From Acidimicrobiia bacterium (GTDB taxonomy: Bacteria > Actinomycetota > Acidimicrobiia > Spongiisociales > ZC4RG35): DNA of 38,864 nt. The DNA is taken from the NCBI GenBank assembly GCA_029865445.1, contig JAOUGY010000001.1, forward strand, positions 1 through 38,864. The letters run 5' to 3'. Below are positions 3,193 through 32,090 of this stretch, piece by piece. Numbering within the stretch: the stretch's first letter is position 1; the number at the start of each line of letters is the position of its first letter. The notes beneath the pieces are model-generated. The model searched no databases, was not told where the DNA came from, and saw only the letters and a program-made list of their open reading frames with translations. The position numbers and the translations under genes are program-made.

Positions 3193-4344
3193 TCAAATCG
3201 AAGCGAGAGCCTTGTCGAGGTCTTCGATGAGATCTTCGACATCTTCCATGCCGACCGACAACCGCACCAAGCCGTCGGTGATTCCCGCGGCCAACCGTGC
3301 ATCGCGCGGCATGTCACCGTGGGTCATGGTCACCGGGTGCGTGATCAGGGATTCCACCGACCCCAGGTTCTCGGCCAGCGACCACAACTCGACCGCACCC
3401 ATGAGGTCTTTGCCGGCCTGCACACCGCCGACCACCTCGAACCAGGCCATGGCCCCGAATCCACTGGCTTGACGCTGGGCGAGGTCGTGTTGCGGGAACG
3501 ACGCCAGGCCCGGATACCCGACCCTCTCGACCTTCGGGTGTGACTCGAGGAACGTGGCGACGGCCATCGCGTTCGCCGACTGCCGATCCATGCGCTCCGA
3601 CAGCGTCTTCGTGCCCTGGAGTGTCAGCCAGGCCACCTGCGGCGACATGATGAGACCCATCGACTTCATGATGAACCGGAAACGTTCGTCCAGGGCAGGA
3701 TCGGCGGCAACCACGGCTCCACCGAGGGTGGCGTTGTGTCCGTCGAGGTACTTCGTAGTGGCGTGCACGACGACGTCGGCCCCCAACTCGATAGGGCGCT
3801 GGTAGTACGGACTCAGGAACGTGTTGTCCACGGCGTGAACGACACCGGCAGACGACGCTATCTCGGATATGGCTGCCAGATCGGTCAGCTTGAGTGTCGG
3901 ATTCGCCGGGGTCTCTGTGAACACGAGTTTCGTCTCGGCTCTCATGGCAGCCTCGACCACCTCCGGTCGGGAGGTGTCGACGAAGGAGAATTCGACACCG
4001 AACCGGCTCAACACCTGGGCAGCGAACCTGTGCGTTCCCCCGTACACGACATCGGAGACGATGGCGTGATCACCTGCGTTGAGGAGCGCCATCATCACCG
4101 AGACTGTCGCTGCCATACCCGACCCGTACGCCGTCGCCGCCACACCGCCCTCGAGGGCCGCCATCCGCCGCTCGAACGCGGCCACCGTCGGGTTGCCCGC
4201 CCTGGTGTATGAGAACCCCTTCTCCATGTACCCATCGACCGACTCCTGCACGAATGTCGTGGACTGGTAGATGGGGGTGATGATGGCACCGGTGGTCGGG
4301 TCCGGCTCGACGCCGGCGTGTATCTGATCGGTTCGGAATCCCAT
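3193..4344 (-). CDS. Cystathionine gamma-lyase / gamma-synthase family PLP enzyme
   Basis: IHAGVEPDPTTGA N-terminus, ATTKYLDGH (PLP-lysine motif), ESLITHPVTMTH near the C-terminus. 383 aa. Convergent with the CBS-like gene; the two stop codons sit in TGACCcagttcGGTCA. Confidence 0.88.
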   Translation of the reverse strand: MGFRTDQIHAGVEPDPTTGAIITPIYQSTTFVQESVDGYMEKGFSYTRAGNPTVAAFERRMAALEGGVAATAYGSGMAATVSVMMALLNAGDHAIVSDVVYGGTHRFAAQVLSRFGVEFSFVDTSRPEVVEAAMRAETKLVFTETPANPTLKLTDLAAISEIASSAGVVHAVDNTFLSPYYQRPIELGADVVVHATTKYLDGHNATLGGAVVAADPALDERFRFIMKSMGLIMSPQVAWLTLQGTKTLSERMDRQSANAMAVATFLESHPKVERVGYPGLASFPQHDLAQRQASGFGAMAWFEVVGGVQAGKDLMGAVELWSLAENLGSVESLITHPVTMTHGDMPRDARLAAGITDGLVRLSVGMEDVEDLIEDLDKALASI

Positions 4345-4406
4345 CGGGTCATGCTACGCCCGGCCGAGACCTGTGTCACCGCCCGCACGGCGGAACCCCA
4401 CCACCT

Positions 4407-4422
4407 CCCCCTGCACAACAAA
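4407..4422 (-). repeat. 16-nt direct repeat copy 1 (minus strand TTTGTTGTGCAGGGGG)
   Basis: Identical 16-mer also at 4511-4526. This copy follows a weak CGGG/CCCG hairpin on the minus strand. Confidence 0.8.
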
Positions 4423-4510
4423 CACCCGGGCCACCCGATACGAACGAACCACACCGCCCAACCCACACCTCCGCCACCAACACCGCGCGTGGGGGTCGCA
4501 AGGGTGTCAC

Positions 4511-4526
4511 CCCCCTGCACAACAAA
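4511..4526 (-). repeat. 16-nt direct repeat copy 2 (minus strand TTTGTTGTGCAGGGGG), forms the U-tail of the terminator
   Basis: Identical to 4407-4422 and lies immediately 3' of the 12-bp terminator stem. Confidence 0.8.
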
Positions 4527-4556
4527 AACGACACCCCGCCGGTGGGCGGGGTGTCG
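4519..4556 (-). terminator. Rho-independent terminator (12-bp GC stem, GGTG/CACC loop, U-rich tail) on the minus strand
   Basis: Arms 4529-4540 cgacaccccgcc and 4545-4556 ggcggggtgtcg. The plus-strand A-tract aacaaaaa (4521-4528) reads as GUUUUUGUUG on the minus strand. Confidence 0.75.
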
Positions 4557-4790
4557 TCAAGCCTTCGAGCTTCCTCGTCGCCTCGGCCCGGCTATCGGGT
4601 GGGGCGACGCCCTGGGGGGACCAGCTCCAGAGTTCTCGGAGGTCGGTGGTCCGAGTTGGAGTCGCTACCTGACTCTCCCGTGTGGGAGGCGAGTCGCGCC
4701 TCGCATGGCAAAGCGCCACTCAGCGCTCGGCCACCTCCAGAGTCCCGTAAGAACTATGCAACTAGGACCACCTCCTTTCTCTGGTGATGT
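4557..4790 (-). ncRNA. Candidate structured small RNA or cis-regulatory leader, class unassigned
   Basis: The 515-bp intergenic gap has no credible ORF. Several nested hairpins are present (AGCGC-TGAGTG-GCGCT, GAGGCG-CGACT-CGCCTC, CTCCC-ACAC-GGGAG, GAGTC-AGGTAGC-GACTC), enclosed by GGAGGTGGCCGAG / CTCGGACCACCGACCTCC pairing. The region ends at the strong terminator. Confidence 0.3.
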
Positions 4791-4858
4791 GATTGTGCCA
4801 CGACACCGGCACTAGGGAAAGGGATTTCGTCGATTTGATCGCCCAGTAGATTCGCTCG

Positions 4859-5569
4859 ATGTTCGAATGGTCGATGGCTGCACTCGTGACATTCTTCGCC
4901 GCCTTGGTGCAAGGGGTGATCGGCTTCGGACTCGGCGTGGTTTCGGTGCCGATCCTTACGTTGCTGGATCCGGTCTTCACTCCGATCCCCCAGCTCATGA
5001 TGTCTGTCCCCCTCGCCTTCGGCACCGCGTTCCGGGAGTGGACCGACGTCGACAAGGCGGGGATCGGTTGGGTCACACTGGGCCGTCTCCCCGGTGCGAT
5101 CGCCGGCACATGGCTCCTGACCCGCATTTCCGACGACGTTCTCGGAGTCGTGATCGGCGTCATCGTGCTCGCCGCCGTCGTCGTCTCGAATCGCGGGTGG
5201 TACGTGCCGATCACTCGCACGAGTCGATTGGCTGCGGGGGTGACCGCCGGATTCACGGGAACCACGTCGGGAATCGGTGGCCCACCCATCGCACTCCTCT
5301 ACAGGAGGTCGCGTCCGGAAGAGGCGCGGTCGACGGTGGGAGCCCTGCTTGCGATCGGGCTGTTCGTGAATCTCGCGGTGCTCGGCGCCGCGGGAGCGAT
5401 CGAACAGTCCGACATCGATGTGAGCCTCCGCCTCGTCGTCCCCGCGCTGGCCGGTTTCGGGGCGAGTTCACTCGTGAAGGGACGTGTCGACGCCGGCCGG
5501 TTTCGGGCGGGCGTTCTCGTAGTCTCCGGCGCCGCAGCAGGGGCACTCGTGCTCAGGTCCTTCTTTTGA
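4859..5569 (+). CDS. Sulfite exporter TauE/SafE family membrane protein
   Basis: 236-aa polytopic hydrophobic protein with the two-half repeat typical of TauE/SafE (GxGGG-like TSGIGGPP). Confidence 0.75.
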   Translation: MFEWSMAALVTFFAALVQGVIGFGLGVVSVPILTLLDPVFTPIPQLMMSVPLAFGTAFREWTDVDKAGIGWVTLGRLPGAIAGTWLLTRISDDVLGVVIGVIVLAAVVVSNRGWYVPITRTSRLAAGVTAGFTGTTSGIGGPPIALLYRRSRPEEARSTVGALLAIGLFVNLAVLGAAGAIEQSDIDVSLRLVVPALAGFGASSLVKGRVDAGRFRAGVLVVSGAAAGALVLRSFF

Positions 5570-8552: not shown

Positions 8553-8647
8553 GGAGGCGACCGAGCGCCTGGTGGGCTCCGCGGTCTTCAAAACCGTTGG
8601 GGGGCCGAAACGTCCCCGGCGGGTTCGATTCCCGTCCGCCTCCGCCA
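8553..8647 (+). tRNA. selC: tRNA-Sec (anticodon UCA), CCA encoded
   Basis: GGAGGCG...CGCCTCC-G-CCA acceptor. Anticodon arm GCGGT-CUUCAAA-ACCGU. Long variable arm (GGGGGGCCGAAACGUCCCC). T-loop GGGTTCGATTCCC. 95 nt. Confidence 0.85.
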
Positions 8648-8919: not shown

Positions 8920-9220
8920 TCATCGAGCGGACCGCGACAGCCGATGTTGAACTCGCAGGTGGTTGAGGATCGTCGACACGTAGTTGGCCACGGTCTTGCC
9001 GGACACACCCGAAGACGTGACAGCAGGTCAGGGACCAGGGTGCGTCGAGTCGGTGAACAACCACGTCTCGGGCGGATCGGGCCAGCGACTCGGCCGCGAA
9101 CCGATGTCGCCTGCCTTCGGCGCGGTTCAGGGCTGACACCAGCGGACCGGTGTCGCAGATGATCAGCCGGCGAGCCGTGCCAGCACCACCTCAACGCACT
9201 GGGAGGGGTCCTGATCGTCG
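8920..9220 (-). pseudogene. Remnant of a NarL/LuxR-type response regulator (frameshifted, internally deleted)
   Basis: One frame gives a receiver-like start, ARMVDDDQDPSQCVEVVLARL, then a stop. A second frame gives LARSARDVVVHRL. A third gives VSGKTVANYVSTILNHLRV (LuxR HTH signature), ending at TGA 8920-8922. There is no intact ORF. Confidence 0.35.
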
Positions 9221-9497
9221 TCGACCATTCGAGCGTAGGGCAGTGGCTCAGGCCGTTGAGAGACCACTCGGTGACCAAGGAGGAGAAGGAGGTCTTGCGT
9301 CGCTCGGCCTCACCGTCGAGACGAGCCGCAACGGCGGAGGGAGCGAGATGGTGCGTCGTGCGATTGCCGCACTCGAGAGTATGAACCGCGCGGTATGAAG
9401 ATTCGAGGCCTCTGCGTCAGATCAACCATCAACTGGCAAGAACACCGCCAACGCCGGACCACGCAGATCGGCACCTGATGCGTTTGGCCACTGCCGG

Positions 9498-9887
9498 TCA
9501 GATCGTTTCTATTGCGCATCTGGTGCCGGGCGCCCGCGACAGGCGAGCGTCGGCGCTGAGGAGGCTAGAGCCGAGCGTCTCTGCAAGGGCGATGTAGCAG
9601 GCGTCGTAGGCAGTGAGGTTGTCACGCAACTGCCAGCAGCGAAGCAGCAACGGTGCAGTGGGGTACACGGTGATGGGAAGGTCGAGGAGATCCGTCACCG
9701 CTTGTTCGGCCTGGGTGACGTCGAGGTTCCCGAAGTGGAGCTGTCGACGGATCACCGACACGACCTCGACGCGAAGCAGATCCGGTGCGGCTACCTGCTC
9801 ACTATGCAAACGCTGCCGGAAGCGGACACCGTCGGGCCCCGCGTCGGCAACCACCGGGGCAATGACCGAGGCGTCAACGACGAGCAC
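9498..9887 (-). CDS. vapC: PIN-domain ribonuclease toxin VapC
   Basis: N-terminal VLVVDASV (first acidic residue), a later conserved D in TAYDACYIALAE, and a C-terminal SAD motif. 129 aa, GTG start, overlapping the upstream antitoxin by 14 nt. Confidence 0.85.
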   Translation of the reverse strand: MLVVDASVIAPVVADAGPDGVRFRQRLHSEQVAAPDLLRVEVVSVIRRQLHFGNLDVTQAEQAVTDLLDLPITVYPTAPLLLRCWQLRDNLTAYDACYIALAETLGSSLLSADARLSRAPGTRCAIETI

Positions 9888-10104
9888 GTTCAGACTCGAG
9901 CGCGGCGATGGCGTCCTCTCCGCTCAACCGTCCCTTGTTGCGGTGTTCGATCCGGTCGAGAACTTCGTCAATGGTTGGGGTGGAGGCGATCAGTGCCAGT
10001 TTCGCTGCGAGGTACTGCTGGAGCGACTGGCCGGCCAATTCGGCCTGACGGACCAGTGCTTCGTGGACCTCTTCGGGCACGTCACGCACTTGCACATGCG
10101 GCAT
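9874..10104 (-). CDS. vapB: Ribbon-helix-helix (FitA/VapB-like) antitoxin
   Basis: MPHVQVRDVPEEVHEALVRQAELAGQSLQQYL is a typical RHH antitoxin N-terminus. ORF 9874..10242 trimmed to the ATG at 10104, which has a -10 box 6 nt upstream. Confidence 0.8.
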   Translation of the reverse strand: MPHVQVRDVPEEVHEALVRQAELAGQSLQQYLAAKLALIASTPTIDEVLDRIEHRNKGRLSGEDAIAALESERARR

Positions 10105-10125
10105 GCATGCATAATACATGCAGAT
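10105..10125 (-). promoter_or_regulatory. Putative vapBC promoter/operator: -10 TATTAT 6 nt from the ATG (leaderless), embedded in GCATG repeats
   Basis: Minus strand reads CTGCATG TATTAT GCATGC ATG CCG CATGTGCA. This is an AT-rich patch in GC-rich DNA. Confidence 0.4.
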
Positions 10126-10277
10126 CACTGACGAGGCAAGAGATCCGATCACCAGTCCTGGAATGAGAACGAGCACATCACCGAACCACACCGATCGGCA
10201 CGTCGGCGCGCTCTCGCGCCCTCGGATCGGGTTCAGGATCACCGGGTCAAGCTCGACGGAGCATGCTCAAAGAGTTC

Positions 10278-10717
10278 CTATCGCGCAGAAACGGCCTCGA
10301 ACCCGAGCCGCTGATACAGACCGATCGCGGGGTTCCGTACGCCTGTACTGAGACTCATCCGGGGCACGACTTCGAAAAGTCGGCCGCGGAGGGCGATTCC
10401 GAAGCTCGGCCGCGCCAATCCTGCTTCACGGCAATCGTGAGCTCCGGCATGACGTCGTCGACTTAGCCGTTCCCGCGATCTTCGCCCCGAAACAGACGCA
10501 CCCACGCGGCCCCGACCGGATTGCCCCCGGCTTCGGCCACCAAACCCACGTCACCCATCCTGGTCCCGAATCCGGCCGCATACCGGGCGACCTCCGGTGT
10601 GTCGAGAACGGATCGAGGGAAGGGCTCACAGCCGGTAAGAACGAAGAGCGCCTCGTAGAGCATGTCGAAGAGGAACGCTTCGTCGTGCGAGGAAGCGGCG
10701 CGAATCGTGCCCATCAC
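10278..10717 (-). pseudogene. GNAT N-acetyltransferase, inactivated (in-frame TAA at 10463-10465 plus a frameshift near 10410)
   Basis: N-terminal part is in ORF 10463..10717. After the TAA the same frame continues PELTIAVKQDWRGR. The C-terminal part, FGIALRGRLFE...NPAIGLYQRLGFEAV, lies in another frame (ORF 10278..10505). Confidence 0.7.
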
Positions 10718-11029
10718 CCGCCCGAGCCTATCGAGCCGGCGTCGCCGGGTAGGGCGGCGAGCACGTTCGACTTCCGCTCTTCGAGCTCCGATCGTGTCGG
10801 CCGCGTTGGGGGGTCGTCGAAGGTTGGTGCGTCAGCGTGCCGGTTCCGGAGCGAGGAGAACCACCCGCGCGTAACGGCGCCTCGATGATCGATTCGGCCG
10901 GTTGGAGGGGAGGAACTCGGCGACGGGACGAATCCGATGCTGAGCGCACATGGGTAGTCACGACCGTTGGCCCTAGCGCCGGGCGTCCGCGAAAGGCAAT
11001 CTCGGAGATAGGTAACAAGGGAGGTTGCG

Positions 11030-12691
11030 ATGCGTCCCGTGTCACTTTGGTGCCCTCACAGCAGCAAGTACATACGGGCAGGCGTTGGACCGCACAGTCA
11101 CCTCGCCGCCGTCAGCGACGCCGTAAGCGCGTGGGAGTCCTTCGTCCTCGACGACTTCGGTGCGAGTTCCGTCACGGTGCAGTCCTTGTGGAGCGAGCGC
11201 TTCGTTCGGGCCGGTGTGGGCCCAGACAGTCACTTGGCGGCAGTCAGCTCGCACATCGGAGGATGGGAGACGTTCAAGCTGATCGAGCTCGGCGGAGGGA
11301 AGTCGGCACTTCAGTCCACCCACAGCGGCAAATACGTCCGGGCTGGGGTCGGGCCGGACAGCCATCTGGCTGCGGTGAGTGACCACATCGACGCATGGGA
11401 GACCTTCGAGCTACGAGACAGCGCATGGCGCCCGGACTTCCGACACCCGGATGCCCACATGACGGGCATCCGAACCGTCAGGGGATCCAAGCCGGTTCTC
11501 ACCGTGCTTGTCGACTATCCGGATCAACCCATCAGCGACCACAACGTGGCTTCGGCCGACGGGGTCGGCGCCTACACGGCCAACTCGTTCACGACGATGC
11601 TCTTCGGGCCTCGGCCGAGCGTCCGGGACTGGTTCGAGCAGAACTCATACGGCGCGTTCACCATCACCAATGCCGGAGTCGTCGGATGGCTGCGCGACAA
11701 CCGGGCTTTTGGCGATCGGGTCAACCCCGCGCCGGGCACCTATCGGGCGACCAACCAATACCGAGTGGCCCGGACTCGGGCCGTCCAATTGGCCGATGCG
11801 CAGGTGAACTTCGCGCAATTCGACACCGATGGTGACGGCGTCGTGACTCCCGAGGACCTCAGCATCATCGTTGTCTACTCGCACGGCGAGCACTGGACCG
11901 TGCCGGGCGGGCTGGTGCGGCCCATCAACGCCTTCACTACCGCTGACGGTGTGTACCTCGGGGATCACAAGTCCGCGTCGTTATTCAAAGGTGTCGCCGA
12001 GATGTACCTGCACGCTCCCATGTCGAAGTACATCCACGAGCTCTGCCACCTGCTCCTGCATCTCGAGGACCTCTACGCCGATGTGCCGGCGGGCATCGTC
12101 GGTCGGGCGAGCGACTATTCGATCATGGACGACGACTGGAATTACCGCCACCTCGACCCATGGTCGAAGATGAACGTCGGTTGGGTGCGACCACGGGTGA
12201 TCTTCGGATCAGAGGCGGTCACCCTGCGTGCGATCGAAGAACACGGGGACGTCGCCCTCCTCTACGAACCGGCTCACGGACGGCAAGAGTTCTTCCTCGT
12301 CGAGAACCGTTGGCCGGGGACGTCCTACGACGCCGGGATTCCCGGCGGCATCCCGACTCTGGTCCCCGGACCGGCTCAGAACGAGACGACGAGTGCTGGA
12401 ATCGCAGACGCCGGTCTCGCTGTCTGGCACATCGATCACGGCAGCAAATGGCAGGACGACAACACGAATGGGCGGCGGGCCCTGCGCCTCGTGACGCGGG
12501 ATGGTTCGTGGCCGATCGCATCCGCGACGGCGCTGTGGGACGCGTCAGAGCCGGGTGCGGGCTATGACCTCACCACGAGCTCCGGTCCGGCCAACACCTG
12601 CTGGGCCGATGGTTCGACCAATGCGATCCGCGTCGCCAACATCCCATCAGCCGGGCCGGTGGTGACGGTGACCGTCTCGAACGAGGGATGA
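11030..12691 (+). CDS. Fusion protein: N-terminal three-repeat beta-trefoil (fascin-like) domain + M6 (InhA-like) zinc metalloprotease domain; no signal peptide
   Basis: Three ~44-aa repeats (KY[IV]RAGVGP[HD]SHLAAVS..[AG]WE[ST]F). M6-domain pattern KPVLTVLVDYPDQP...WFEQNSYGAFT. HExxH in IHELCHLLLHLEDLY. Strong SD AAGGGAGG 5 nt before the ATG at 11030. Confidence 0.85.
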   Translation: MRPVSLWCPHSSKYIRAGVGPHSHLAAVSDAVSAWESFVLDDFGASSVTVQSLWSERFVRAGVGPDSHLAAVSSHIGGWETFKLIELGGGKSALQSTHSGKYVRAGVGPDSHLAAVSDHIDAWETFELRDSAWRPDFRHPDAHMTGIRTVRGSKPVLTVLVDYPDQPISDHNVASADGVGAYTANSFTTMLFGPRPSVRDWFEQNSYGAFTITNAGVVGWLRDNRAFGDRVNPAPGTYRATNQYRVARTRAVQLADAQVNFAQFDTDGDGVVTPEDLSIIVVYSHGEHWTVPGGLVRPINAFTTADGVYLGDHKSASLFKGVAEMYLHAPMSKYIHELCHLLLHLEDLYADVPAGIVGRASDYSIMDDDWNYRHLDPWSKMNVGWVRPRVIFGSEAVTLRAIEEHGDVALLYEPAHGRQEFFLVENRWPGTSYDAGIPGGIPTLVPGPAQNETTSAGIADAGLAVWHIDHGSKWQDDNTNGRRALRLVTRDGSWPIASATALWDASEPGAGYDLTTSSGPANTCWADGSTNAIRVANIPSAGPVVTVTVSNEG

Positions 12692-12829
12692 TCGTGCAGA
12701 ACCCAAAAACCGTGGCCTGAATGTGGGCGCACACGGGACGAACCGGGCGCCCTGCTCGGTCCACGGGCGCCCTCGTCCTGCGATTTGGCCTCGAGATCCG
12801 GCAACCAGTGTGGTAGCGCCGCCGCCTCC

Positions 12830-15109
12830 TCAGGACCCGTCCCTGGCGGCTTTGTGCTGGGCGTCGGCGACCGCGATCGCTGTGAGGTTCACCACATCGC
12901 CCACCTCGGCATCGCGTTGGAGAACGTGCACCGACTTGGCCAAGCCCGTGAGGATCGGTCCGATCACCTCGGCGTCCGCCAGCTGATTGAGCAGCTTGTA
13001 TGCGGCGTTGCCCGCCGTCAGCGACGGAAACACCAAGATGTTGGCGGCGTGATCGAGTTGCCCGTGAGGCCGGCGGGCCCGCAACAGATCCGTCTTCACC
13101 GCGGTATCCGCCTGCATCTCACCGTCGGCCTTCACGTCGGGGCACCGCTCGCGGAACAACTCGACAGCCCGCCTTATCCGGGCGGGTTCGTCGCCAACCG
13201 CCGACCCAAAGTCCGAATAGCTGAGGAAGGCCACACGGGGCTCGCGATCGAATTGCTGCTGTGCCACCACCACGGCCGCGTCGGCGATCTCCGCCAACTG
13301 CTCGGCGGTCGGCTCGATGTTCACTGCGCAGTCCGTGAAGAAGTACGGCTTGCCCTTGGCGATCACCACGTACACCGACGAGGCGATCGAGCGACCCTCC
13401 TCGAGCTGAATGATCTGCAAGGCAGGTCGGATCGTCTCGGGGTAGAAGGTGGTGAGACCGCCGAGCAGGGCATCTGCGTCCCCCTGTTCCACCATGAGAG
13501 CCGCAAACACGTTCGGGTCGAAGACCTGGCGTTCGGCATGAGCGGCCGACATGCCCTTGCGGCTGCGCAACTCGACGAGCCGGGCGGCATACGCCTTGCG
13601 GAGTTCTGGCTCCGTCACGGGATCGACGATCCTCATACCGTCGAGTTCGATTCCGAGCTCGACAGCCAGCTCGCGGATCACGCCCGTATCACCCAACAGA
13701 ACCGGACTCCCGATTCCCTCGTCGCTGACGCGCCGTGCCGCCCGCAGGATCCGCAGATCGTCCCCATGCGGATACACGACGGTCTTGGGGCGCGATTTGG
13801 CACGTCTCGTCACCAGAGAGATGAGCCCGTACGACGACTGGAACCTGGCCCGAAGGCTCTGGCGGTACTCGTCCACGTCGGTGAGCGGCTCTCGGGCCAA
13901 CCCTTCCTCACAAGCGGCGAGAGCGACGGCCGGCGCAACCGTCCACAGCACGCGGGGGTCGAACGGCTTGGGAATGAGGTACTCGGGACCAAAGCTCAAA
14001 CGGTCGACGTCATACGCCTTCAGCACCGATTCGGGTACCGGTTCCCGGGCGAGCTCGGCGAGGGCTTTCGTAGCGGCGACCTTCATCCCTTCGCTCACTC
14101 CCCGAGCTCGAACGTCGAGCGCGCCGCGGAAGATGAACGGGAACCCGAGCACGTTGTTGACCTGGTTCGGCGTGTCGCTCCGACCCGTGGCGACGATCGC
14201 ATCCGGCCGTGCCTCCTTGGCGTCGTCGTAGTCGATCTCCGCGTCAGGGTTGGCAAGGGCGAAGACGATCGGAGTGTCGGCCATCGACCGGACCATCTCC
14301 TTGGTGACCGTCCCGCCCACCGAGACCCCCACGAAGGCGTCGGCGCCAACGAGAGCGTCCTCGAGCGTTCTAGCTTCGGTTTCTCGCACGAACTCGAGCT
14401 TGAATCCCGTCACGTCATCGCGTCCGGAGTGGATCACACCCTTCGAGTCGAGCATCAGGACGTTCTCGGCTCGCACACCCAGAGACTGGAAGAACCGCGC
14501 CGTGGCGATACCGGCGGCGCCGGCCCCGCTGAAGACGACGCGGACATCCTCGATCCGCTTCTCGGCCAGTTCCAAGGCGTTGAGAAACGCCGCTCCGCCG
14601 ATGATGGCCGTACCGTGCTGGTCGTCGTGGAACACGGGTATGTCGAGACGAGAGCGCAGGGTCTCTTCGATGTGGAAGCAGTCGGGTGCCCTGATGTCTT
14701 CGAGGTTGATGCCCCCCACCGTGGGTTCCAACAGCTCGCAGAACTTGATGATGTCTTCGGGGTCCTCCGACCCCACCTCGAGGTCAAAAACATCGATGTC
14801 GGCGAAGCGCTTGAAGAGAACTCCTTTGCCCTCCATCACCGGCTTGCTGCCCATGGGGCCGATGTTCCCGAGACCAAGCACCGCGGTCCCGTTCGAGACC
14901 ACAGCCACGAGATTGCCCTTGTTGGTGTATCGGAAGACGGCTGACGGGTCCTTGGCGATGACCCGACACGGCTCCGCCACGCCTGGGGTGTAGGCGAGAC
15001 TCAGATCGGCTTGAGTGGCTGTCGGTTTGGTGGGACGGGTCTCGATCTTCCCGGGGCGACCCCTCTCGTGGTAGTCGAGGGCTTCCGAGAACTGTGCGCG
15101 GTCTGTCAT
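12830..15109 (-). CDS. maeB: NADP-dependent malic enzyme with C-terminal phosphate-acetyltransferase-like domain
   Basis: 759 aa. N-terminal malic-enzyme motifs (LSLAYTPGVA, VVSNGTAVLGLGNIGP, FSGAGAAGIA) and a PTA-like C-terminal half. Confidence 0.93.
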   Translation of the reverse strand: MTDRAQFSEALDYHERGRPGKIETRPTKPTATQADLSLAYTPGVAEPCRVIAKDPSAVFRYTNKGNLVAVVSNGTAVLGLGNIGPMGSKPVMEGKGVLFKRFADIDVFDLEVGSEDPEDIIKFCELLEPTVGGINLEDIRAPDCFHIEETLRSRLDIPVFHDDQHGTAIIGGAAFLNALELAEKRIEDVRVVFSGAGAAGIATARFFQSLGVRAENVLMLDSKGVIHSGRDDVTGFKLEFVRETEARTLEDALVGADAFVGVSVGGTVTKEMVRSMADTPIVFALANPDAEIDYDDAKEARPDAIVATGRSDTPNQVNNVLGFPFIFRGALDVRARGVSEGMKVAATKALAELAREPVPESVLKAYDVDRLSFGPEYLIPKPFDPRVLWTVAPAVALAACEEGLAREPLTDVDEYRQSLRARFQSSYGLISLVTRRAKSRPKTVVYPHGDDLRILRAARRVSDEGIGSPVLLGDTGVIRELAVELGIELDGMRIVDPVTEPELRKAYAARLVELRSRKGMSAAHAERQVFDPNVFAALMVEQGDADALLGGLTTFYPETIRPALQIIQLEEGRSIASSVYVVIAKGKPYFFTDCAVNIEPTAEQLAEIADAAVVVAQQQFDREPRVAFLSYSDFGSAVGDEPARIRRAVELFRERCPDVKADGEMQADTAVKTDLLRARRPHGQLDHAANILVFPSLTAGNAAYKLLNQLADAEVIGPILTGLAKSVHVLQRDAEVGDVVNLTAIAVADAQHKAARDGS

Positions 15110-15163
15110 GGTCGAAGGCTACAGCGCTTGTGCACACCCGGTCACCATGCATACCGTGCCACC

Positions 15164-15268
15164 ATGAACGTTCGGACGGCGGCCAAGATCGCACTCTGGG
15201 TGATGGTTGGCGCCACCGTCCTCGCAGTATTCACTGCGTTTGGCGCCTACCTGGTCGCTACGTTCTGA
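15164..15268 (+). CDS. Possible 34-aa single-TM small protein
   Basis: MNVRTAAKIALWVMVGATVLAVFTAFGAYLVATF, taken from an internal ATG of ORF 15011..15268. No clear SD, so this rests on the hydrophobic helix only. Confidence 0.25.
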   Translation: MNVRTAAKIALWVMVGATVLAVFTAFGAYLVATF

Positions 15269-21320: not shown

Positions 21321-21349
21321 GCGGCGCTTCGCGGCGGCGGGTTTCTTGG

Positions 21350-22522
21350 TCAGGGGGAGATCAGGTCGGCGGTCTCGACATCGTGGCGCCGGATCCCCAG
21401 AAGGAACAGGATCGCGTCGAGATACGGCACACTCAACGACGTGTCGGCAGCCTCGGACACCACGGGCTTGGCGTTGAAGGCGATGCCGAGGCCCGCAACC
21501 GAAAGCATGTCGATGTCGTTGGCTCCGTCGCCGACCGCCACCGTCTGAGCGAGCGGGATACCTTCCGACTCTGCGATCTCCCGCAAGACCCTGGCCTTGC
21601 CCGCACGGTCGACCACCGGCCCCTCGAGGCGACCGGTGACCACACCATCCACGACCTCGAGTCGGTTGGCGACCGCGTGTTCGAGACCGAGGTCTGTCTT
21701 CAGGCGATCGGTGAACACCGAGAACCCTCCCGACACCACGGCCACCTTCATCCCCAGCCGGTGCAAGGTCCGAACAAACGTGCGCGCACCGGGAGTCAGC
21801 TGGATCTGTCCCCTGACCCGCTCGAGATCTCCCTCGGTGGCACCGGCGAGCAGCGCAACCCGCTCCCGCAGCGAGGTCTCGAAGTCGTGATCGCCCGACA
21901 TGGCCTCGGCTGTCAGGCGCGCCACCTCTGCGCCAACCCCTATCTGAGAGGCAAGCAGTTCGATCACCTCGCCCTGGATGAGTGTCGAGTCCACGTCCAT
22001 GACCACGAGACGTTTCGCCCGCCGGAACAGACCTTCCGGCTGAATCGCCAAATCGATCTGGTGCTCCTTGGAGGCCGCTCCGAGTCCCCGCCGCATGGCC
22101 TCGGTGTCCCCTCCCGAAACGGCCAGTTCGTAGCTGATGACCGGGTACGTGGCTATCTGGGCGATCCGGTCGATGTTTCCCCCTCCATCGGCGATCGCCC
22201 GCGCCACCGCGCCGAACCCGGCAGGCTCGACAGCGGTTCCGATCACTGTGACCACCGACTCTGCTCCTCGACGCTGCGGGGAACCATCGACGACCTCGAA
22301 GTCGAGATGGACGCCCCGCTGCCATCCGAAGAACAGCAACTCCTTGACGGTCGACCGGCCTTCCGGCACCTCGATGAGAAGACCGAGTTCCAACCTGCCG
22401 TGCAGAACGACCTGTTCGACATCGAGGATCTCGACGCCGTCCCCCGCCAGCACGTCCATGATGCCTGCTGTGATGCCAGGGCCGTCTGGCCCGCTCACCC
22501 TCACCAATATCGTCGTGCCCAC
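21350..22522 (-). CDS. serB: Phosphoserine phosphatase SerB with N-terminal ACT domains
   Basis: ACT-like ILVRVSGPDGPGITAGIMDVLA. HAD motifs VVMDVDSTLIQ, VSGGF, GDGANDIDML. GTG start at 22522 chosen by similarity to the usual SerB N-terminus; the ORF-track start 22795 lies inside pepN. Confidence 0.88.
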   Translation of the reverse strand: MGTTILVRVSGPDGPGITAGIMDVLAGDGVEILDVEQVVLHGRLELGLLIEVPEGRSTVKELLFFGWQRGVHLDFEVVDGSPQRRGAESVVTVIGTAVEPAGFGAVARAIADGGGNIDRIAQIATYPVISYELAVSGGDTEAMRRGLGAASKEHQIDLAIQPEGLFRRAKRLVVMDVDSTLIQGEVIELLASQIGVGAEVARLTAEAMSGDHDFETSLRERVALLAGATEGDLERVRGQIQLTPGARTFVRTLHRLGMKVAVVSGGFSVFTDRLKTDLGLEHAVANRLEVVDGVVTGRLEGPVVDRAGKARVLREIAESEGIPLAQTVAVGDGANDIDMLSVAGLGIAFNAKPVVSEAADTSLSVPYLDAILFLLGIRRHDVETADLISP

Positions 22523-22543
22523 GGCCGGCAGCCTACCGGTACC

Positions 22544-25123
22544 ATGACATCTCCCGACCAACTCCGAGGCATGCCCGACAATCCATACCGACTTCCGCGT
22601 TCCGTCGTTCCCAGCCACTACAGGCTCCGGCTCGAACCCGACCTCGAGGCCTTCGTGTTCTCGGGGACGGTCGAGATAGACGTGACGGTGGAAGAACCCG
22701 TCGACACCATCCAGCTCAACGCCCTCGAACTCGAGATCGAAAATGGAGTACTGCTCAGAGACTCCGAGACGATCGGGTTGTCCGCGACCCTCCACGAAGC
22801 CGATCAGAGGGTGATCTTCAACTCCGAGGTCGAGATCTCACCCGGGCCGGCCACCATCCGGATCGGTTTCTCGGGAACGCTCAATGATCAACTTCACGGT
22901 TTCTACCGGTCATCGTTCACCGATGTGAACGGCGACGAGCAGGTGATCGCCACGACCCAGTTCGAGGCAACTGACGCCCGACGTGCCTTTCCCTGCTTCG
23001 ACGAACCCGACTTCAAGGCCTCGTTCGGCATCACACTGGTGGTTCCCGAGACGCTGTTTGCGGTGTCCAACGGCGCCGAGGTGAGTCGTGTCCCCTCCGG
23101 CGGCGGGCGGGTCGAGGTCACGTTCGCGGACACGATGAAGATGTCAACGTATCTCGTGGCCTTCGTCGTTGGACCGTTCGAGGCAACGGAGGAACTCGAC
23201 GTCGACGGTGTTCCGCTGCGGGTGATCGCTCCAAGAGGGAAACTCGACCTCAGCCCGTTCGCCCTCGAGTGCGGTGCCTTCTGTCTCAGATATCTCTCCG
23301 AGTACTACGACATCCCCTACCCCGGCGACAAGGTCGACCTCGTCGCCATACCCGATTTCGCGTTCGGGGCGATGGAGAACCTCGGGTGTATCACGTTCCG
23401 GGAGTCTGCGCTCCTGGTGGAACCCGCAACCGCCACGCAGGCCGAACTGGTACGGATCCTGGACGTCGTGGCGCACGAACTCGCTCACATGTGGTTCGGC
23501 GACCTCGTCACGATGGAGTGGTGGGATGGGATCTGGCTCAACGAGGCCTTCGCCACCTTCATGGAGATGAAAGCCACCGACGCCATGCGACCCGACTGGC
23601 GCAGATGGGTGTCCTTCGGCGCCGTCGAACGCCCATGGGCTTTCGCGGTCGACGGGTTGGCGAATACGCGGCCCGTCGAGTTCGAAGTCACCTCGCCCGA
23701 CGAGGCGAACGAGATGTTCGACGCGCTGACCTACGGCAAGGGGTCGTCGGTGCTTCGTATGATCGAGCAGTACCTCGGCGAGGAAGTGTTCCGCCGGGGA
23801 GTCGCCGACTACCTCCGCAAACACTCGTACGCCAACACCGTCACGTCCGACCTCTGGGAGGGTCTCGATCGGGCCTCCACATCCGATGTCGGTTCGATCA
23901 TGGACACCTGGATCCTCCAGGGAGGGTATCCCCAGGTGGAGACGTCGCTGAGCGGTGACAGCCTGAACCTCACACAGCGTCGTTACCTCTCCATCCCGGA
24001 CGAAACCGACCAGACGATGTGGCGAATCCCGGTTCAGGTTCGGGGTGAAGCGGCCGGGAAGCCGTTCGACTCGAAGATGCTGCTGGACGGGCCAGTGAGG
24101 TCGCTCGATGTTCCGACGCCAATCGACTGGGTGATCGTGAACGCGGGCGGCCACGGCTTCTATCGCACGTCCTACGACCGAGATTCATATACGGCTCTGG
24201 TCGGTGCGATCACCCGTCTCGAAGCCCTGGAACGCTTCGTTCTCATCGACGACGCGTGGGCGTTCGTCGAATCGGGACAGGTGTCTGCCCGCCAATACCT
24301 GGAACTGTCCCGGGCCTATGGCAACGAGACCGAGCATTCGGTGTGGTCGGCGCTCGTCGGTGGCCTCGCCTCGCTCCGCCATCACGTCGTCACAGACGAC
24401 CGACTCCCCCAGTTCAGGACCGTCGTAGCATCACTGGTGGGACCGATGGCCGGCCGACTCGGTTGGGACGGCGACTCCGGGGAGGACGATCTTCAGCGGC
24501 GGCTGCGTGGCCTGCTCGTCGGCGCCATGGGACGCCTGGCAGAGGACCCCGCCACGATCGAGGCGTCCCGCGAACTGGCCGTGCGCTACCTCGAGAGCAC
24601 CACCGGCATCGACCCGGATGTCGGCCAGGCGGCGTTGTTCACCTGGGCTGCGCACGGCGACCAGGACTCGCTCGAGCGCCTATTCCTCGCCTACAAAGGG
24701 GCACGGACTCCGCAGGCGGAACTCAAGCTGCTGCAGGCCATGACGTTCATCGATGACAACGAGGCAGTAGATCGGATACTCGCCGCGGTCCTCGACGGAA
24801 CGGTGCGCACCCAAGACAGCGCTTGGATCGTCGCCCGGCTCATGAGCGGCCGCCACAGCGGCTCCTACCTGTGGAGCGAACTGCGGAGCCGTTGGAGCGA
24901 ACTCACCGCCCGGATGCCTCCAGTAACACTCCGCCGCATGATCGAAGGGATCCCGGCGCTGAGCCAGCCAGCGGCGGCAGCGGACGTCCACGCCCACTTC
25001 GCCGAGACCGACCTTCCGATCGCCAAGAAGACCGTGGCTCAGAATCTCGAGAAGCTGACCATCAACACCGGTCTCAGGGCCCGCGAATCGGGTCCTGTGA
25101 ACGAGTTCCTGTCCGAACTCTGA
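22544..25123 (+). CDS. pepN: M1-family aminopeptidase N
   Basis: GAMEN exopeptidase motif and HELAHMWFGD...WLNEAFA zinc site. Start is ATG 22544 (or 22571). The 387 N-terminal residues in the ORF track are antisense to serB. Confidence 0.92.
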   Translation: MTSPDQLRGMPDNPYRLPRSVVPSHYRLRLEPDLEAFVFSGTVEIDVTVEEPVDTIQLNALELEIENGVLLRDSETIGLSATLHEADQRVIFNSEVEISPGPATIRIGFSGTLNDQLHGFYRSSFTDVNGDEQVIATTQFEATDARRAFPCFDEPDFKASFGITLVVPETLFAVSNGAEVSRVPSGGGRVEVTFADTMKMSTYLVAFVVGPFEATEELDVDGVPLRVIAPRGKLDLSPFALECGAFCLRYLSEYYDIPYPGDKVDLVAIPDFAFGAMENLGCITFRESALLVEPATATQAELVRILDVVAHELAHMWFGDLVTMEWWDGIWLNEAFATFMEMKATDAMRPDWRRWVSFGAVERPWAFAVDGLANTRPVEFEVTSPDEANEMFDALTYGKGSSVLRMIEQYLGEEVFRRGVADYLRKHSYANTVTSDLWEGLDRASTSDVGSIMDTWILQGGYPQVETSLSGDSLNLTQRRYLSIPDETDQTMWRIPVQVRGEAAGKPFDSKMLLDGPVRSLDVPTPIDWVIVNAGGHGFYRTSYDRDSYTALVGAITRLEALERFVLIDDAWAFVESGQVSARQYLELSRAYGNETEHSVWSALVGGLASLRHHVVTDDRLPQFRTVVASLVGPMAGRLGWDGDSGEDDLQRRLRGLLVGAMGRLAEDPATIEASRELAVRYLESTTGIDPDVGQAALFTWAAHGDQDSLERLFLAYKGARTPQAELKLLQAMTFIDDNEAVDRILAAVLDGTVRTQDSAWIVARLMSGRHSGSYLWSELRSRWSELTARMPPVTLRRMIEGIPALSQPAAAADVHAHFAETDLPIAKKTVAQNLEKLTINTGLRARESGPVNEFLSEL

Positions 25124-30129: not shown

Positions 30130-30186
30130 GCTGCAACACTACCGCCGCGACCCACCCGGGCAGACGGATGACCCGTTGGCACACAG

Positions 30187-30222
30187 GAGAGAGGGGCGGG
30201 TCATCTGACCCGCCCCTCTCTC
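30187..30222 (-). terminator. 16-bp perfect GC-rich hairpin downstream of rpmG (no U-tail)
   Basis: Arms gagagaggggcgggtc and gacccgcccctctctc, with a 4-nt loop. Confidence 0.5.
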
Positions 30223-30265
30223 ATCGACCCCTGACTCCGCAGGTTCCACGCTACCAGCGCGGACC

Positions 30266-30427
30266 TCAGCGAGTCTCGCGGTGAGCGGTATGAGAACGGC
30301 ACCACTTGCAGTACTTCTGCAGCTGAAGCCGATCACGTGTATTGGTCTTGTTCTTCGTCGTCACGTAGTTGCGCCGCTTGCACGTGTCGCACGCCAACGT
30401 GATCGGCGGTCTCTTGTCAGAAGGCAT
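30266..30427 (-). CDS. rpmG: 50S ribosomal protein L33 (zinc-ribbon C+ form); not in the supplied ORF track (53 aa)
   Basis: Hand translation gives [53 protein letters not shown]. Confidence 0.9.
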
Positions 30428-30497
30428 TTAGCTCACTCGCTTCGCTCGTTCGCTGCTGAACGCTGTGCGCCAAACGCGACACGCCAGAACTCTCTGG

Positions 30498-30525
30498 CCC
30501 ACCGCCCACCGCGCACCGCGCACCG
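30498..30525. repeat. Short heptanucleotide tandem repeat: 2 x CCCACCG then 2 x CGCACCG, ending 2 nt from the tuf stop codon
   Basis: Read directly. The minus strand reads TGA-TG-(CGGTGCG)2(CGGTGGG)2. Confidence 0.85.
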
Positions 30526-30527
30526 CA

Positions 30528-31718
30528 TCACTTGCTGATCTTGACAACCCGACCAGCACCAACAGTCCGACCACCCTCACGAATCGCGAACCGCTGCCCC
30601 TCATCCATCGCGATCGGCGTGATCAACTGCACCTGCATCTCCGTATTGTCCCCAGGCATCACCATCTGCGTCCCCTCAGGCAACGTCACCGCACCCGTCA
30701 CATCCGTCGTCCGGAAATAAAACTGCGGCCGATACCCAGAGAAGAACGGGTTATGACGACCACCCTCCTCCCGAGTCAAAATATAAACCTGAGCATCAAA
30801 CTCGGTATGAGGCGTAATCGACCCAGGCTTCGCCAACACCTGACCCCGCTCCACCTCATCCTTACCCACACCCCGCAACAACACCCCCACATTGTCACCA
30901 GCCTGACCCTGATCCAACAACTTCCGGAACATCTCAATCCCAGTAGCCACCGTCTTCTTGGTCGCCTTGATCCCCACAATCTCAACCTCTTCATTGACGT
31001 TGAGAACACCCTGCTCAATCTTGCCCGTCACCACCGTCCCCCGACCCGTAATCGAGAACACATCCTCAATCGGCATCAAAAACGGCTTATCCGTATCCCG
31101 ATCAGGCTCCGGCACAAACGAATCCACAGCATCCATCAACGCCATGACCTGATCCTGAGACCCCTCATCCCCCTCCATCGCCCGCAACGCAGACCCACGC
31201 ACCACCGGCGTGTCATCACCCGGGAACTCATACTCAGTCAACAGATCCCGAACCTCGAGCTCCACCAACTCCAGAAGCTCCTCATCATCCACCATGTCGA
31301 CCTTGTTCAAAAACACAACAATCGACGGCACACCCACCTGACGCGCCAACAACACATGCTCACGCGTCTGCGGCATCGGCCCATCCGTCGCCGCCACCAC
31401 CAAAATCGCACCATCAACCTGCGCCGCACCCGTAATCATGTTCTTGATGTAATCAGCATGACCCGGCATATCCACATGCGCATAATGACGATTCGCCGTC
31501 TCATACTCCACATGAGCAATCTGAATCGTGATCCCCCGCTCACGCTCCTCCGGCGCCTTATCAATCATGTCAAACGCCGTAAACGTATTCGAACCACCAA
31601 CACGCTCAAACAACGTCTTCGTGATCGCCGCCGTCAACGTCGTCTTCCCATGATCAATATGACCCATCGTCCCCACGTTCACATGCGGCTTCGTCCGCTC
31701 AAACTTCGCCTTCGCCAT
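30528..31718 (-). CDS. tuf: Elongation factor Tu
   Basis: [28 protein letters not shown]..., 396 aa, actinobacterial-type sequence throughout. Codon usage is strongly atypical (see findings). Confidence 0.97.
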
Positions 31719-31770
31719 AACGATGTCCCTTTCTAGTGTGATCGTGGGCCGGTGAAGCCCATCTGCGATG

Positions 31771-31844
31771 TAGCGGCGGGCGGACTCGAACCGCCGACCT
31801 CTCGATTATGAGTCGAGCGCTCTCACCTACTGAGCTACGCCGCC
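31771..31844 (-). tRNA. tRNA-Met (anticodon CAT; elongator-type anticodon stem, Ile2-lysidine identity not excluded)
   Basis: Reverse complement is GGCGGCGTAGCTCAGTAGGTGAGAGCGCTCGACTCATAATCGAGAGGTCGGCGGTTCGAGTCCGCCCGCCGCTA. Confidence 0.85.
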
Positions 31845-31901
31845 TCGTTGCGGAGCCATTCTGCTCCGCCATACCTCGTCATCTGTGCCACGAAGTACGC
31901 G

Positions 31902-31973
<72 letters not shown>

Positions 31974-32007
31974 GTGGATTGTGTTGACGCCGCCATGGGC
32001 GCCGTCG

Positions 32008-32090
32008 TGCCGGGAGAAGGATTTGAACCTCCGAAGGCTTGCGCCGGCAGATTTACAGTCTGCTCCCTTTGGCCGCTCGGGCATCCCGGC
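32008..32090 (-). tRNA. tRNA-Tyr (anticodon GTA), long variable arm
   Basis: Reverse complement is GCCGGGATGCCCGAGCGGCCAAAGGGAGCAGACTGTAAATCTGCCGGCGCAAGCCTTCGGAGGTTCAAATCCTTCTCCCGGCA. Confidence 0.88.

Follow-up and report, generated by a model that had tools for sequence, protein, structure and literature searches.

Loss of C and A from the coding strand of tuf genes that evolve in concert in Acidimicrobiia

Background

Elongation factor Tu (EF-Tu) is encoded by one of the most conserved and most highly expressed genes of bacteria, tuf, a textbook example of translationally optimised codon usage. In fact, no protein-coding gene is expected to be more highly expressed than tuf. Why, then, should the tuf gene of an Acidimicrobiia bacterium (assembly GCA_029865445.1, contig JAOUGY010000001.1) be written in codons that hardly ever end in C, while its neighbours favour such codons? 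We addressed this question for a stretch of 38,864 nt from this contig, subsequently referred to as the window, in which an initial annotation made from the sequence alone had singled out tuf as aberrant.

We find that a strand-specific pressure on single nucleotides replaces C and A by G or T wherever the protein tolerates it, and only in the coding segment that is homogenised between two tuf copies. This pressure opposes the C-ending optimum of fusA, rpoC and the ribosomal protein genes in related genomes. As its cause we tentatively favour selection for a C-poor transcript.

Codon usage of the tuf gene

Among the 396 sense codons of the window's tuf gene, 233 end in G, 127 in T, 35 in C and a single one in A. 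The other genes of the window, when pooled, have third positions of C 2411, G 1995, T 615 and A 482, i.e. about 44% of their codons end in C (chi-square 320, p 5e-69 for tuf against the pool). Taken one by one, these genes show a fraction of C at third positions (C3) of.36–.50, and none of them comes near tuf. The initial annotation had used rplK and rplL as C-ending comparators, and justly so (C3.42 for rplK and.39 for the rplL open reading frame (ORF)).

The two-fold families and Ile show counts of CAT 10 and CAC 0 for His, GAT 23 and GAC 5 for Asp, TAT 6 and TAC 1 for Tyr, ATT 15 and ATC 7 for Ile, TTT 9 and TTC 7 for Phe, and AAT 5 and AAC 5 for Asn. Of 24 Leu codons, 19 are TTG, a codon that accounts for 10% of Leu in the reference genes. 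Ala is encoded by GCG (22) and GCT (7), never by GCC (0 of 29; 52% in the reference genes), CGC is absent from 23 Arg codons (CGT 8), and GGC occurs once in 39 Gly codons (GGT 22). The counts made by hand for the initial annotation thus turned out to be right or nearly right, for example for His, Asp (23 of 28) and Leu.

On the plus strand the gene appears as a G-poor region, and the G+C content drops across it, as had been noted before (G+C 0.56, plus-strand GC skew -0.41). The absolute GC skew does not exceed 0.17 elsewhere in the window (sliding windows that partly overlap tuf excepted). The anomaly belongs to one gene and is not part of a regional skew. The G+C content of third positions (GC3) is.68 in tuf, compared with.74–.84 in the adjoining genes.

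The encoded protein is unremarkable. It is a full-length EF-Tu (TIGR00485, 720.5 bits with a cut-off of 522.4, residues 1–394) that contains the GTPase motifs, including NKVD. The closest EF-Tu proteins are 88–95% identical and all come from Acidimicrobiia wherever a source is named, and in the relative with the closest EF-Tu (P0001) the flanking genes are conserved as well. The product had been described as a normal EF-Tu of the actinobacterial type, and we can only agree.

The same pattern in other lineages

We scanned one genome per species and obtained 80 tuf loci. In ordinary high-G+C bacteria, the C-ending fraction of tuf lies above that of its surroundings, by +0.10 to +0.20. There is, however, a distinct group in which it lies below, by -0.11 to -0.37, and in which G is higher. 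The tuf-only pattern was found in at least ten Acidimicrobiia lineages (Ilumatobacteraceae, Iamiaceae, Microthrixaceae and others), on contigs of 0.8–2.3 Mb and on a complete chromosome (L002). The strength of the skew differs between lineages, and the trait is scattered and quantitative on the EF-Tu tree. It culminates in an extreme clade of Acidimicrobiia (L002 and L085–L088; tuf at 10001–11191) with a C3 of.01 and an A3 of.00, so that 99% of third positions are G or T. Not one of the first 300 codons ends in C in this clade.

Skewed tuf genes are not restricted to the Acidimicrobiia. We could also observe one in Acidobacteriota (L072; four-fold sites C.07, G.78) and a strongly C-depleted one in Desulfatiglandaceae, a family of Desulfobacterota (L073; four-fold C.07). 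The latter locus also has an unusual gene order (8970–11194), with tuf directly after rpsL and rpsG and no fusA between them.

The initial annotation had named one observation that would make the pattern a lineage-specific optimum, namely other highly expressed genes with the same avoidance of C. This is not what we found: codon usage in groEL, fusA, rpoC and the ribosomal protein genes is either unshifted or tilted toward C. Genes without skew that accompany a skewed tuf include fusA (directly upstream), rpsJ (directly downstream), groEL, groES, nusG, rpoC and more than 20 ribosomal protein genes. In L090, for example, fusA, rpoC and the ribosomal protein genes have a C3 of.53–.63, compared with.20 for tuf. 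No further gene with the tuf pattern was present in stretches of about 40 kb from several of these genomes. The codon usage of tuf is therefore contrary to the expectation for a gene with high expression, as had been suspected, given that fusA, rpoC and the ribosomal protein genes of the relatives are C-ending.

Even the closest neighbours are normal. Downstream of the tuf copy that follows tRNA genes (tufB), rpmG starts only 11–15 nt after the stop codon in L172 and L184 and has a C3 of.44–.46. Downstream of the copy that follows fusA (tufA), rpsJ begins within 16–115 nt in several loci and has a normal composition. A slight shift is seen in the last 40 codons of fusA at most of the str-type loci examined.

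In one distant lineage (L154), rpoB (9843–13187) is G-rich at four-fold sites (C.22, G.64) and tuf likewise, which suggests a genome-wide or strand-wide excess of G at third positions that is not specific to tuf.

Two tuf copies that evolve in concert

Wherever the copy number could be read, two tuf genes are present, tufB behind tRNA-Thr/Met and tufA behind fusA, and both are skewed. Pairs on the same contig were found in six related lineages (L081/L082, L085/L086, L087/L088, L129, L172/L173 and L184/L185). The window itself contains only the tufB-type copy, but it forms a pair from the same population with a fusA-tuf contig (L084), whose tuf differs by one silent exchange (nt 93) and in the stop codon. 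In the relative with the closest EF-Tu, two tuf genes lie 50 kb apart on one contig of 1.2 Mb. One is syntenic with the window and the other is part of rpoBC-rpsL-rpsG-fusA-tuf-rpsJ; they have unrelated flanks and not a single difference in 1191 nt. The pairs of two genomes from the extreme clade show 0 and 6 differences, the two copies of L129 give identical composition and identity values, and the same arrangement recurs in an abundant freshwater lineage and one further lineage. Overall, the pairs differ at 0–6 positions per 1191 nt in their sense codons, and sometimes in the stop codon too.

The 5' limit of the identity tract lies between -24 and 0, its 3' limit between the last sense codon and about +40; only in L081/L082 does the tract reach about +100, with an indel. 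Nearly identical coding segments between unrelated flanks mean that the two copies evolve in concert by gene conversion. Concerted evolution of tuf duplicates has been described for six phyla, Actinobacteria among them (PMC6053082).

The order tRNA-Thr(GGT)-tRNA-Met(CAT)-tuf is present in 11 of 11 tufB-type loci of Acidimicrobiia, with tuf 38–136 nt behind the tRNA. Among the loci examined, none of the skewed tuf genes belongs to a genome that demonstrably has only one copy. The sole negative control is an indirect one, from an rpoB-centred metagenome scan: L092 has no tufB, and its rpoBC is 87% identical to that of L068, whose tufA is unskewed.

The initial annotation had proposed that the gene might be a second copy derived from another lineage. 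A second copy does exist, tufA behind fusA, but it is identical or nearly identical at the DNA level and shares the bias, so that it is neither a xenolog nor a copy with a different codon bias. Another of its suggestions, deliberate low-efficiency coding of a paralogous EF-Tu, is contradicted by the finding that all EF-Tu genes found in these genomes share the bias.

Identical copies can also mislead assembly. In contig L083 (1–9701), fusA, i.e. the upstream flank of tufA, is joined via tuf to the dehydratase, secE and nusG, i.e. the downstream flank of tufB. An assembler that switched loci within the repeat is the most likely reason, with a real recombinant as the alternative.

A different situation was seen in L117, from a low-G+C organism, where the tufB-type and tufA-type copies (4283–5479 and 21344–22537) differ in codon usage (four-fold sites G.18 and.07, T.40 and.56, respectively) and are apparently not homogenised.

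Boundaries of the skewed segment

The window's tuf belongs to a conserved row of genes on the minus strand: a gene for an M48 peptidase, the tRNA genes for Tyr, Thr and Met (32090–31770), tuf, rpmG, a hairpin and a gene for a HadA/B-like dehydratase. The row continues with tRNA-Trp, secE, nusG, rplK, rplA, rplJ and rplL. The parts in and around tuf are as follows.

32007..32090, minus strand: tRNA-Tyr(GTA), the first of the tRNA cluster upstream of tuf (ARAGORN; Rfam tRNA, 54 bits)
31901..31973, minus strand: tRNA-Thr(GGT) (ARAGORN, Rfam)
31770..31844, minus strand: tRNA-Met(CAT), which ends 51 nt ahead of the tuf start codon (ARAGORN, Rfam)
31719..31769, minus strand: tuf leader with the Shine-Dalgarno-like sequence GAAAGGGA; C not depleted
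30528..31718, minus strand: tuf, tufB-type copy, 396 aa; 91% of third positions G or T (stop codon counted)
30428..30527, minus strand: tuf-rpmG spacer, still G-rich, outside the tract of tufA/tufB identity
30266..30427, minus strand: rpmG, ribosomal protein L33, 53 aa (NCBIfam L33, 79.5 bits), too small for the ORF list
30189..30220, minus strand: strong hairpin 3' of rpmG with a G+C-rich stem of 16 bp and no U tract
30465..31736, plus strand: antisense mirror ORF, 423 aa, in the same codon register as tuf

The anomaly had been said to be confined exactly to the coding sequence. This is true for the 5' edge, which is sharp (C.29 and G.25 in the 51-nt leader). The 3' edge is less clear-cut: the last five sense codons include three that end in C (GTC, ATC, AGC), and the 100-nt spacer remains rich in G, with a GC skew of +0.31 over 30426..30527. 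In rpmG, 17 of 53 codons end in C. Along the gene, C-ending codons are rarest at the 5' end and become more frequent toward the 3' end, and the last 20 codons or so are back at the unskewed level in all groups.

Outside the coding sequence there is no comparable bias. The pooled untranslated regions (UTRs) of 20 skewed loci have a G+T content of.41, i.e. they are not rich in G and T, and in the extreme clade 3' UTRs are rich in A or in A and C. In L087/L088, where the 40 nt after the stop codon are identical between the copies, these nucleotides consist of 75% A+C, and the composition flips exactly at the stop codon.

The terminal codons of tuf (GTC ACC AAG ATC ... AAG stop; 30531–30560 in the window) retain the C-ending ATC, and usually ACC, in all loci of Acidimicrobiia; even the clade without any other C-ending codon has kept ATC. 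In addition, GATCA occurs eight times in the window's tuf (4.0 expected, z 3.5). This may reflect a specific constraint at the 3' end.

The hairpin downstream of rpmG likely marks the end of a tRNA-tuf-rpmG transcription unit; its role as a terminator is suggested by the predicted fold (30175–30240, -40.4 kcal/mol, z -4.9).

The mirror ORF, which had already been noticed, does exist, but it is a by-product. It lacks stop codons because the sense codons almost never end in A, so that antisense codons almost never start with T. We also considered a functional antisense gene and rejected it. Keeping the frame open does not require the avoidance of C at third positions, and since 91% of the sense codons end in G or T, nearly all codons of the mirror ORF start with C or A; Gly, Ala, Val, Asp and Glu would therefore be rare in its product.

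A pressure on nucleotides

The pressure acts on nucleotides and not on wobble decoding, because Leu changes from CTG to TTG and because the extreme clade gains Val and Gly. The TTR share of Leu codons is.65–1.0 in all skewed tuf genes except the weakest (L025,.40), compared with 0–.05 in unskewed high-G+C tuf genes. The EF-Tu proteins of the extreme clade contain 64 Val and 47 Gly residues, whereas about 40 and 35, respectively, are usual in other EF-Tu proteins. In L002, 31 changes at conserved columns lead from A or C to G or T and only 4 lead the other way.

Transversions (C to G, A to T) are part of the pattern. When the lineages are arranged as a graded series, the C-to-G change at four-fold sites and the Leu change come first, and the C-to-T change at two-fold sites follows later. 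The choice between G and T depends on the neighbouring bases: T is taken before G or C and after G, which avoids runs of G. Of the 53 four-fold differences between the window and L081, 39 are G/T exchanges. The four-fold divergence of tuf is 28%, compared with 48–62% in the adjoining genes; since an alphabet of two letters lowers divergence under selection as well as under mutation, we did not use this difference as a test between them. Chi-like or other enriched k-mers were looked for by synonymous shuffling, and none was convincing (best z about 5 among hundreds). Selection for hidden stop codons ('ambush') as the reason for T-ending codons gave a weak signal (T.40 vs.30 in the extreme clade and.49 vs.44 in the strongly skewed group) and was rejected.

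Possible cause: selection for a C-poor transcript

Which force could override the codon optimum of so highly expressed a gene? The explanation that we tentatively prefer, although its chances are somewhat below even, is selection on the tuf transcript to escape Rho or RNase E, which would have arisen in the copy located in the tRNA operon and spread by gene conversion. As the one protein-coding gene that lies within a tRNA operon, tufB would be entered by RNA polymerase without a following ribosome; the tuf mRNA would then be freed by tRNA processing. A C-poor, G/U-rich coding RNA would offer Rho no C-rich, G-poor loading site. The actinobacterial RNase E cuts 5' of C and would find two to three times fewer potential targets in such an RNA. 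Full-length, long-lived tuf mRNA could in this way be made even when transcription and translation are uncoupled, and gene conversion would impose the tufB sequence on tufA. The explanation presupposes that these genomes encode Rho and RNase E and that tuf is co-transcribed with the tRNAs.

Several properties of these factors fit. Rho anchors on C-rich RNA (PMC6797219), and coupled ribosomes block its loading (PMC5021804). The mycobacterial RNase E cleaves 5' of cytidines (PMC10641625). In the sense RNA of tuf, no 78-nt window contains more C than G, compared with 9–70% of such windows in other genes and 100% on the antisense strand of tuf. YC dinucleotides are reduced from about 210 to 81 and RNCNU motifs from about 45 to 26.

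Selection on the transcript accounts for the limitation to the coding region, the gradient from 5' to 3' and the occurrence in several phyla. The relaxed 3' end would be explained because Rho loading within the last 60–100 nt cannot abort the gene, and the link to the duplication because conversion exports the tufB sequence to tufA.

A number of observations weigh against it. YC and RNCNU are not avoided beyond what the base composition predicts, and there is even a slight excess of TC (z +2 to +4). In Proteobacteria, where tufB lies in a tRNA operon of this kind, the gene is little skewed or unskewed (L007, L019, L065). The force required would be very large, given that the fraction of C-ending codons falls from about.37 to less than.01 in the extreme clade while the ribosomal protein genes are not shifted. 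In that clade even the protein is changed. Such a force resembles a molecular drive more than ordinary selection at silent sites. In the case of tufA, the fusA RNA ahead of it would give Rho a place to load in any event, and the depletion of A is explained only indirectly.

A related idea, weaker mRNA structure as the main driver, was rejected: the predicted folding energy is reduced by only 15–30% (-0.31 kcal/mol per nt in tuf vs -0.36 to -0.39 in unskewed orthologues).

Rival explanation: conversion filtered by mismatch repair

The strongest rival, doubtful but deserving serious attention, is a non-adaptive molecular drive, in which conversion between tufA and tufB is filtered by the blind spots of the actinobacterial mismatch endonuclease NucS and ratchets the coding strand toward G and T. 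NucS acts on G-T, G-G and T-T mispairs and misses C-A, A-C, C-C and A-A. If the heteroduplex regularly consisted of the coding-sense strand of the recipient and the antisense strand of the donor (the former being the lagging-strand template if the gene is co-oriented with replication), conversions from C or A to G or T would escape repair and the reverse ones would be rejected, whatever the cost for translation.

These blind spots agree with in vivo data from M. smegmatis, in which NucS rejects G-T, G-G and T-T but not C-A, C-C and A-A mispairs (PMC11551744). The idea is attractive in other respects, too. As tuf is the only homogenised duplicate that we saw, an effect on tuf alone would be expected, and the skewed segment equals the conversion tract. 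A drive fits a pressure at the level of bases without a motif signal, one that overrides the translational optimum and pushes the extreme clade toward Val and Gly. It predicts the loss of both C and A, by transversions as well as transitions, and neutral exchange between G and T, as seen in L002 (31 against 4 changes) and between the window and L081 (39 of 53). Finally, every skewed lineage with a readable copy number has two copies, and the tufB-less L092 is related to L068 with its unskewed tufA.

However, where the identity tract extends into non-coding DNA, it shows no enrichment of G and T, as exemplified by the A+C-rich 40 nt past the stop codon in L087/L088. The two ends of the homologous segment also differ: skew is strongest in the first codons, directly at the 5' edge, whereas about 20 codons at the 3' end escape it. 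In Salmonella, tuf conversion initiates uniformly along the gene and proceeds in both directions (PMC5485169), so that similar behaviour of both edges would be expected. The avoidance of C, including the change from CTG to TTG for Leu, also occurs in Acidobacteriota and Desulfobacterota. Both of these phyla are expected to use MutS/MutL. The strand bias of the heteroduplex is itself an assumption. GC-biased gene conversion is excluded because GC3 falls in tuf and because the effect is strand-asymmetric.

Less probable explanations

It seems very improbable that the pattern is due to transcription-associated asymmetry, i.e. to deamination of C to U and of A to hypoxanthine on the exposed non-template strand of a very heavily transcribed gene, possibly reinforced by R-loops. 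The sign of the skew is right, since a G+T-rich coding strand is the classical mark of this process, reportedly described by Francino and Ochman and by Green et al. in 2003, and the slight shift at the end of fusA would fit as well. Still, it is excluded because the co-transcribed neighbours and the UTRs are unaffected and transversions are involved: rpmG and rpsJ must be co-transcribed with tuf and yet are normal, the pooled 5' and 3' UTRs are unskewed, and the 3' UTRs of the extreme clade are even A- or A/C-rich. Strand-specific hypermutation, as put forward in the initial annotation, is contradicted in its transcription-associated form by the same genes, including fusA. A variant in which the promoter of the tRNA operon is combined with such deamination was rejected on the same grounds; moreover, skewed tuf genes are also located behind fusA.

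There is equally little chance that we see a lineage-specific translational optimum, set for example by the tRNA pool or by queuosine and apparent in no gene but the one with the highest expression. Those codons that still end in C cluster in the 'weak' types TTC, ATC and AAC, and the strong ones take T (GGT 22 to GGC 1, CGT 8 to CGC 0), a pattern that resembles the classical balancing of codon-anticodon strength. But general translational selection is excluded because the other highly expressed genes (groEL, fusA, rpoC and all ribosomal protein genes) are unaffected or show the opposite preference. In addition, T- and C-ending two-fold codons are read by the same tRNA, neither the Leu change nor the amino-acid replacements are wobble effects, and the last 20 codons are normal.

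Foreign DNA or an artefact (an assembly chimera, horizontal acquisition of tuf or a divergent paralogue with weak expression) is extremely improbable: although L083 illustrates that assemblers can cross over at tuf, chimera and transfer are excluded by the recurrence of synteny and skew in many independent assemblies, long contigs and the complete chromosome included, and by the native protein, whose closest relatives of named source are all Acidimicrobiia with the same neighbours on the contigs examined; no donor could have 90–99% G/T third positions genome-wide, and a paralogue is excluded because all copies found share the bias. The probability that remains belongs to some mechanism other than those considered here.

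Other features of the window and of compared loci

Apart from tuf, the window contains a genuine tRNA-Sec gene (8553–8643, plus strand; Rfam RF01852, 75.6 bits) next to an HTH regulator and ORFs without assignment; among the window ORFs scanned with Pfam, no match to the SelA, SelB or SelD families was found. A gene for a PIN-domain (VapC-like) toxin is located at 9498–9887 on the minus strand and overlaps a small upstream ORF (9874–10242), a candidate antitoxin. On the plus strand, an ORF of 1246 aa (21350–25123) overlaps a serB-like gene on the minus strand. The Pfam domains of aminopeptidase N begin only at residue 409 of this ORF, and its true start is probably near 22600; the long overlap is an artefact of high G+C content. 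Among the loci compared, L060 carries three tandem units of about 400 bp (14168–15184, minus strand), each with the same ORF (VRHTPARVVDERPRR...), whose third positions are strongly C-skewed.

Relation to known systems

The finding joins known kinds of phenomena, gene-specific codon bias and concerted evolution of tuf, although its cause could be new. The concerted evolution of tufA and tufB was reportedly described by Lathe and Bork in 2001. As in Salmonella and E. coli, one copy lies in the fusA (str) context and the other is a tRNA-associated copy ahead of secE-nusG, and conversion keeps the copies identical over the coding sequence only. In the present case, by contrast, hardly any C or A is left at the free positions of the homogenised segment, and its codon usage is unlike that of every other gene. 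In the available parts of two papers on tuf conversion and concerted evolution (PMC5485169, PMC6053082), no compositional consequence is mentioned.

Translational codon bias is likewise strongest in tuf, and A-ending codons are avoided as in other high-G+C tuf genes; in our case, however, the direction is opposite to the optimum of the ribosomal protein genes, fusA and rpoC, tuf alone is concerned, and first positions of Leu codons and even amino acids are affected. Transcription-associated strand asymmetry has the same sign, but the effect seen here is far larger, stops at the edges of the coding sequence and leaves UTRs and co-transcribed neighbours untouched. GC-biased gene conversion resembles the drive discussed above as a non-adaptive fixation bias that is linked to conversion and confined to recombining segments; it raises G+C on both strands, whereas in tuf GC3 is about.68 vs.78 and the asymmetry is one of keto against amino bases. 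ACA-less transcripts, which resist MazF, and rut-free RNA, which resists Rho, are examples of silent recoding that removes a feature recognised by an RNA-targeting factor. Short motifs are concerned there, while a whole class of bases is removed from tuf and no avoidance at the level of motifs was detected.

In the literature that we searched on tuf composition, neither a loss of C and A specific to tuf nor a compositional effect of tuf concerted evolution was described. The gene-specific recoding of tuf in both of its near-identical copies thus does not seem to have been described before.

Conclusions

In the lineages presented here, the gene for EF-Tu is recoded against the optimum of its own genome, with 91% G or T at third positions in the window and 99%, together with a shift in amino acids, in a related clade. 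This has practical consequences, as tuf is both a phylogenetic marker and a reference gene for the codon adaptation index (CAI). In these lineages, tuf would mislead the calibration of CAI and of the tRNA adaptation index, the composition-based detection of gene transfer and nucleotide-level trees. Its identical copies also make assemblers cross between loci, as in L083.

If selection on the transcript is the cause, tuf would be a natural mRNA that has been made resistant to Rho or RNase E, and it would provide a handle on transcription-translation coupling in Actinobacteria. If a conversion drive is the cause, it would be the first strand-asymmetric one that is shaped by the specificity of NucS and affects an essential gene, and it would have prevailed over codon optimisation in the most abundant protein of the cell.

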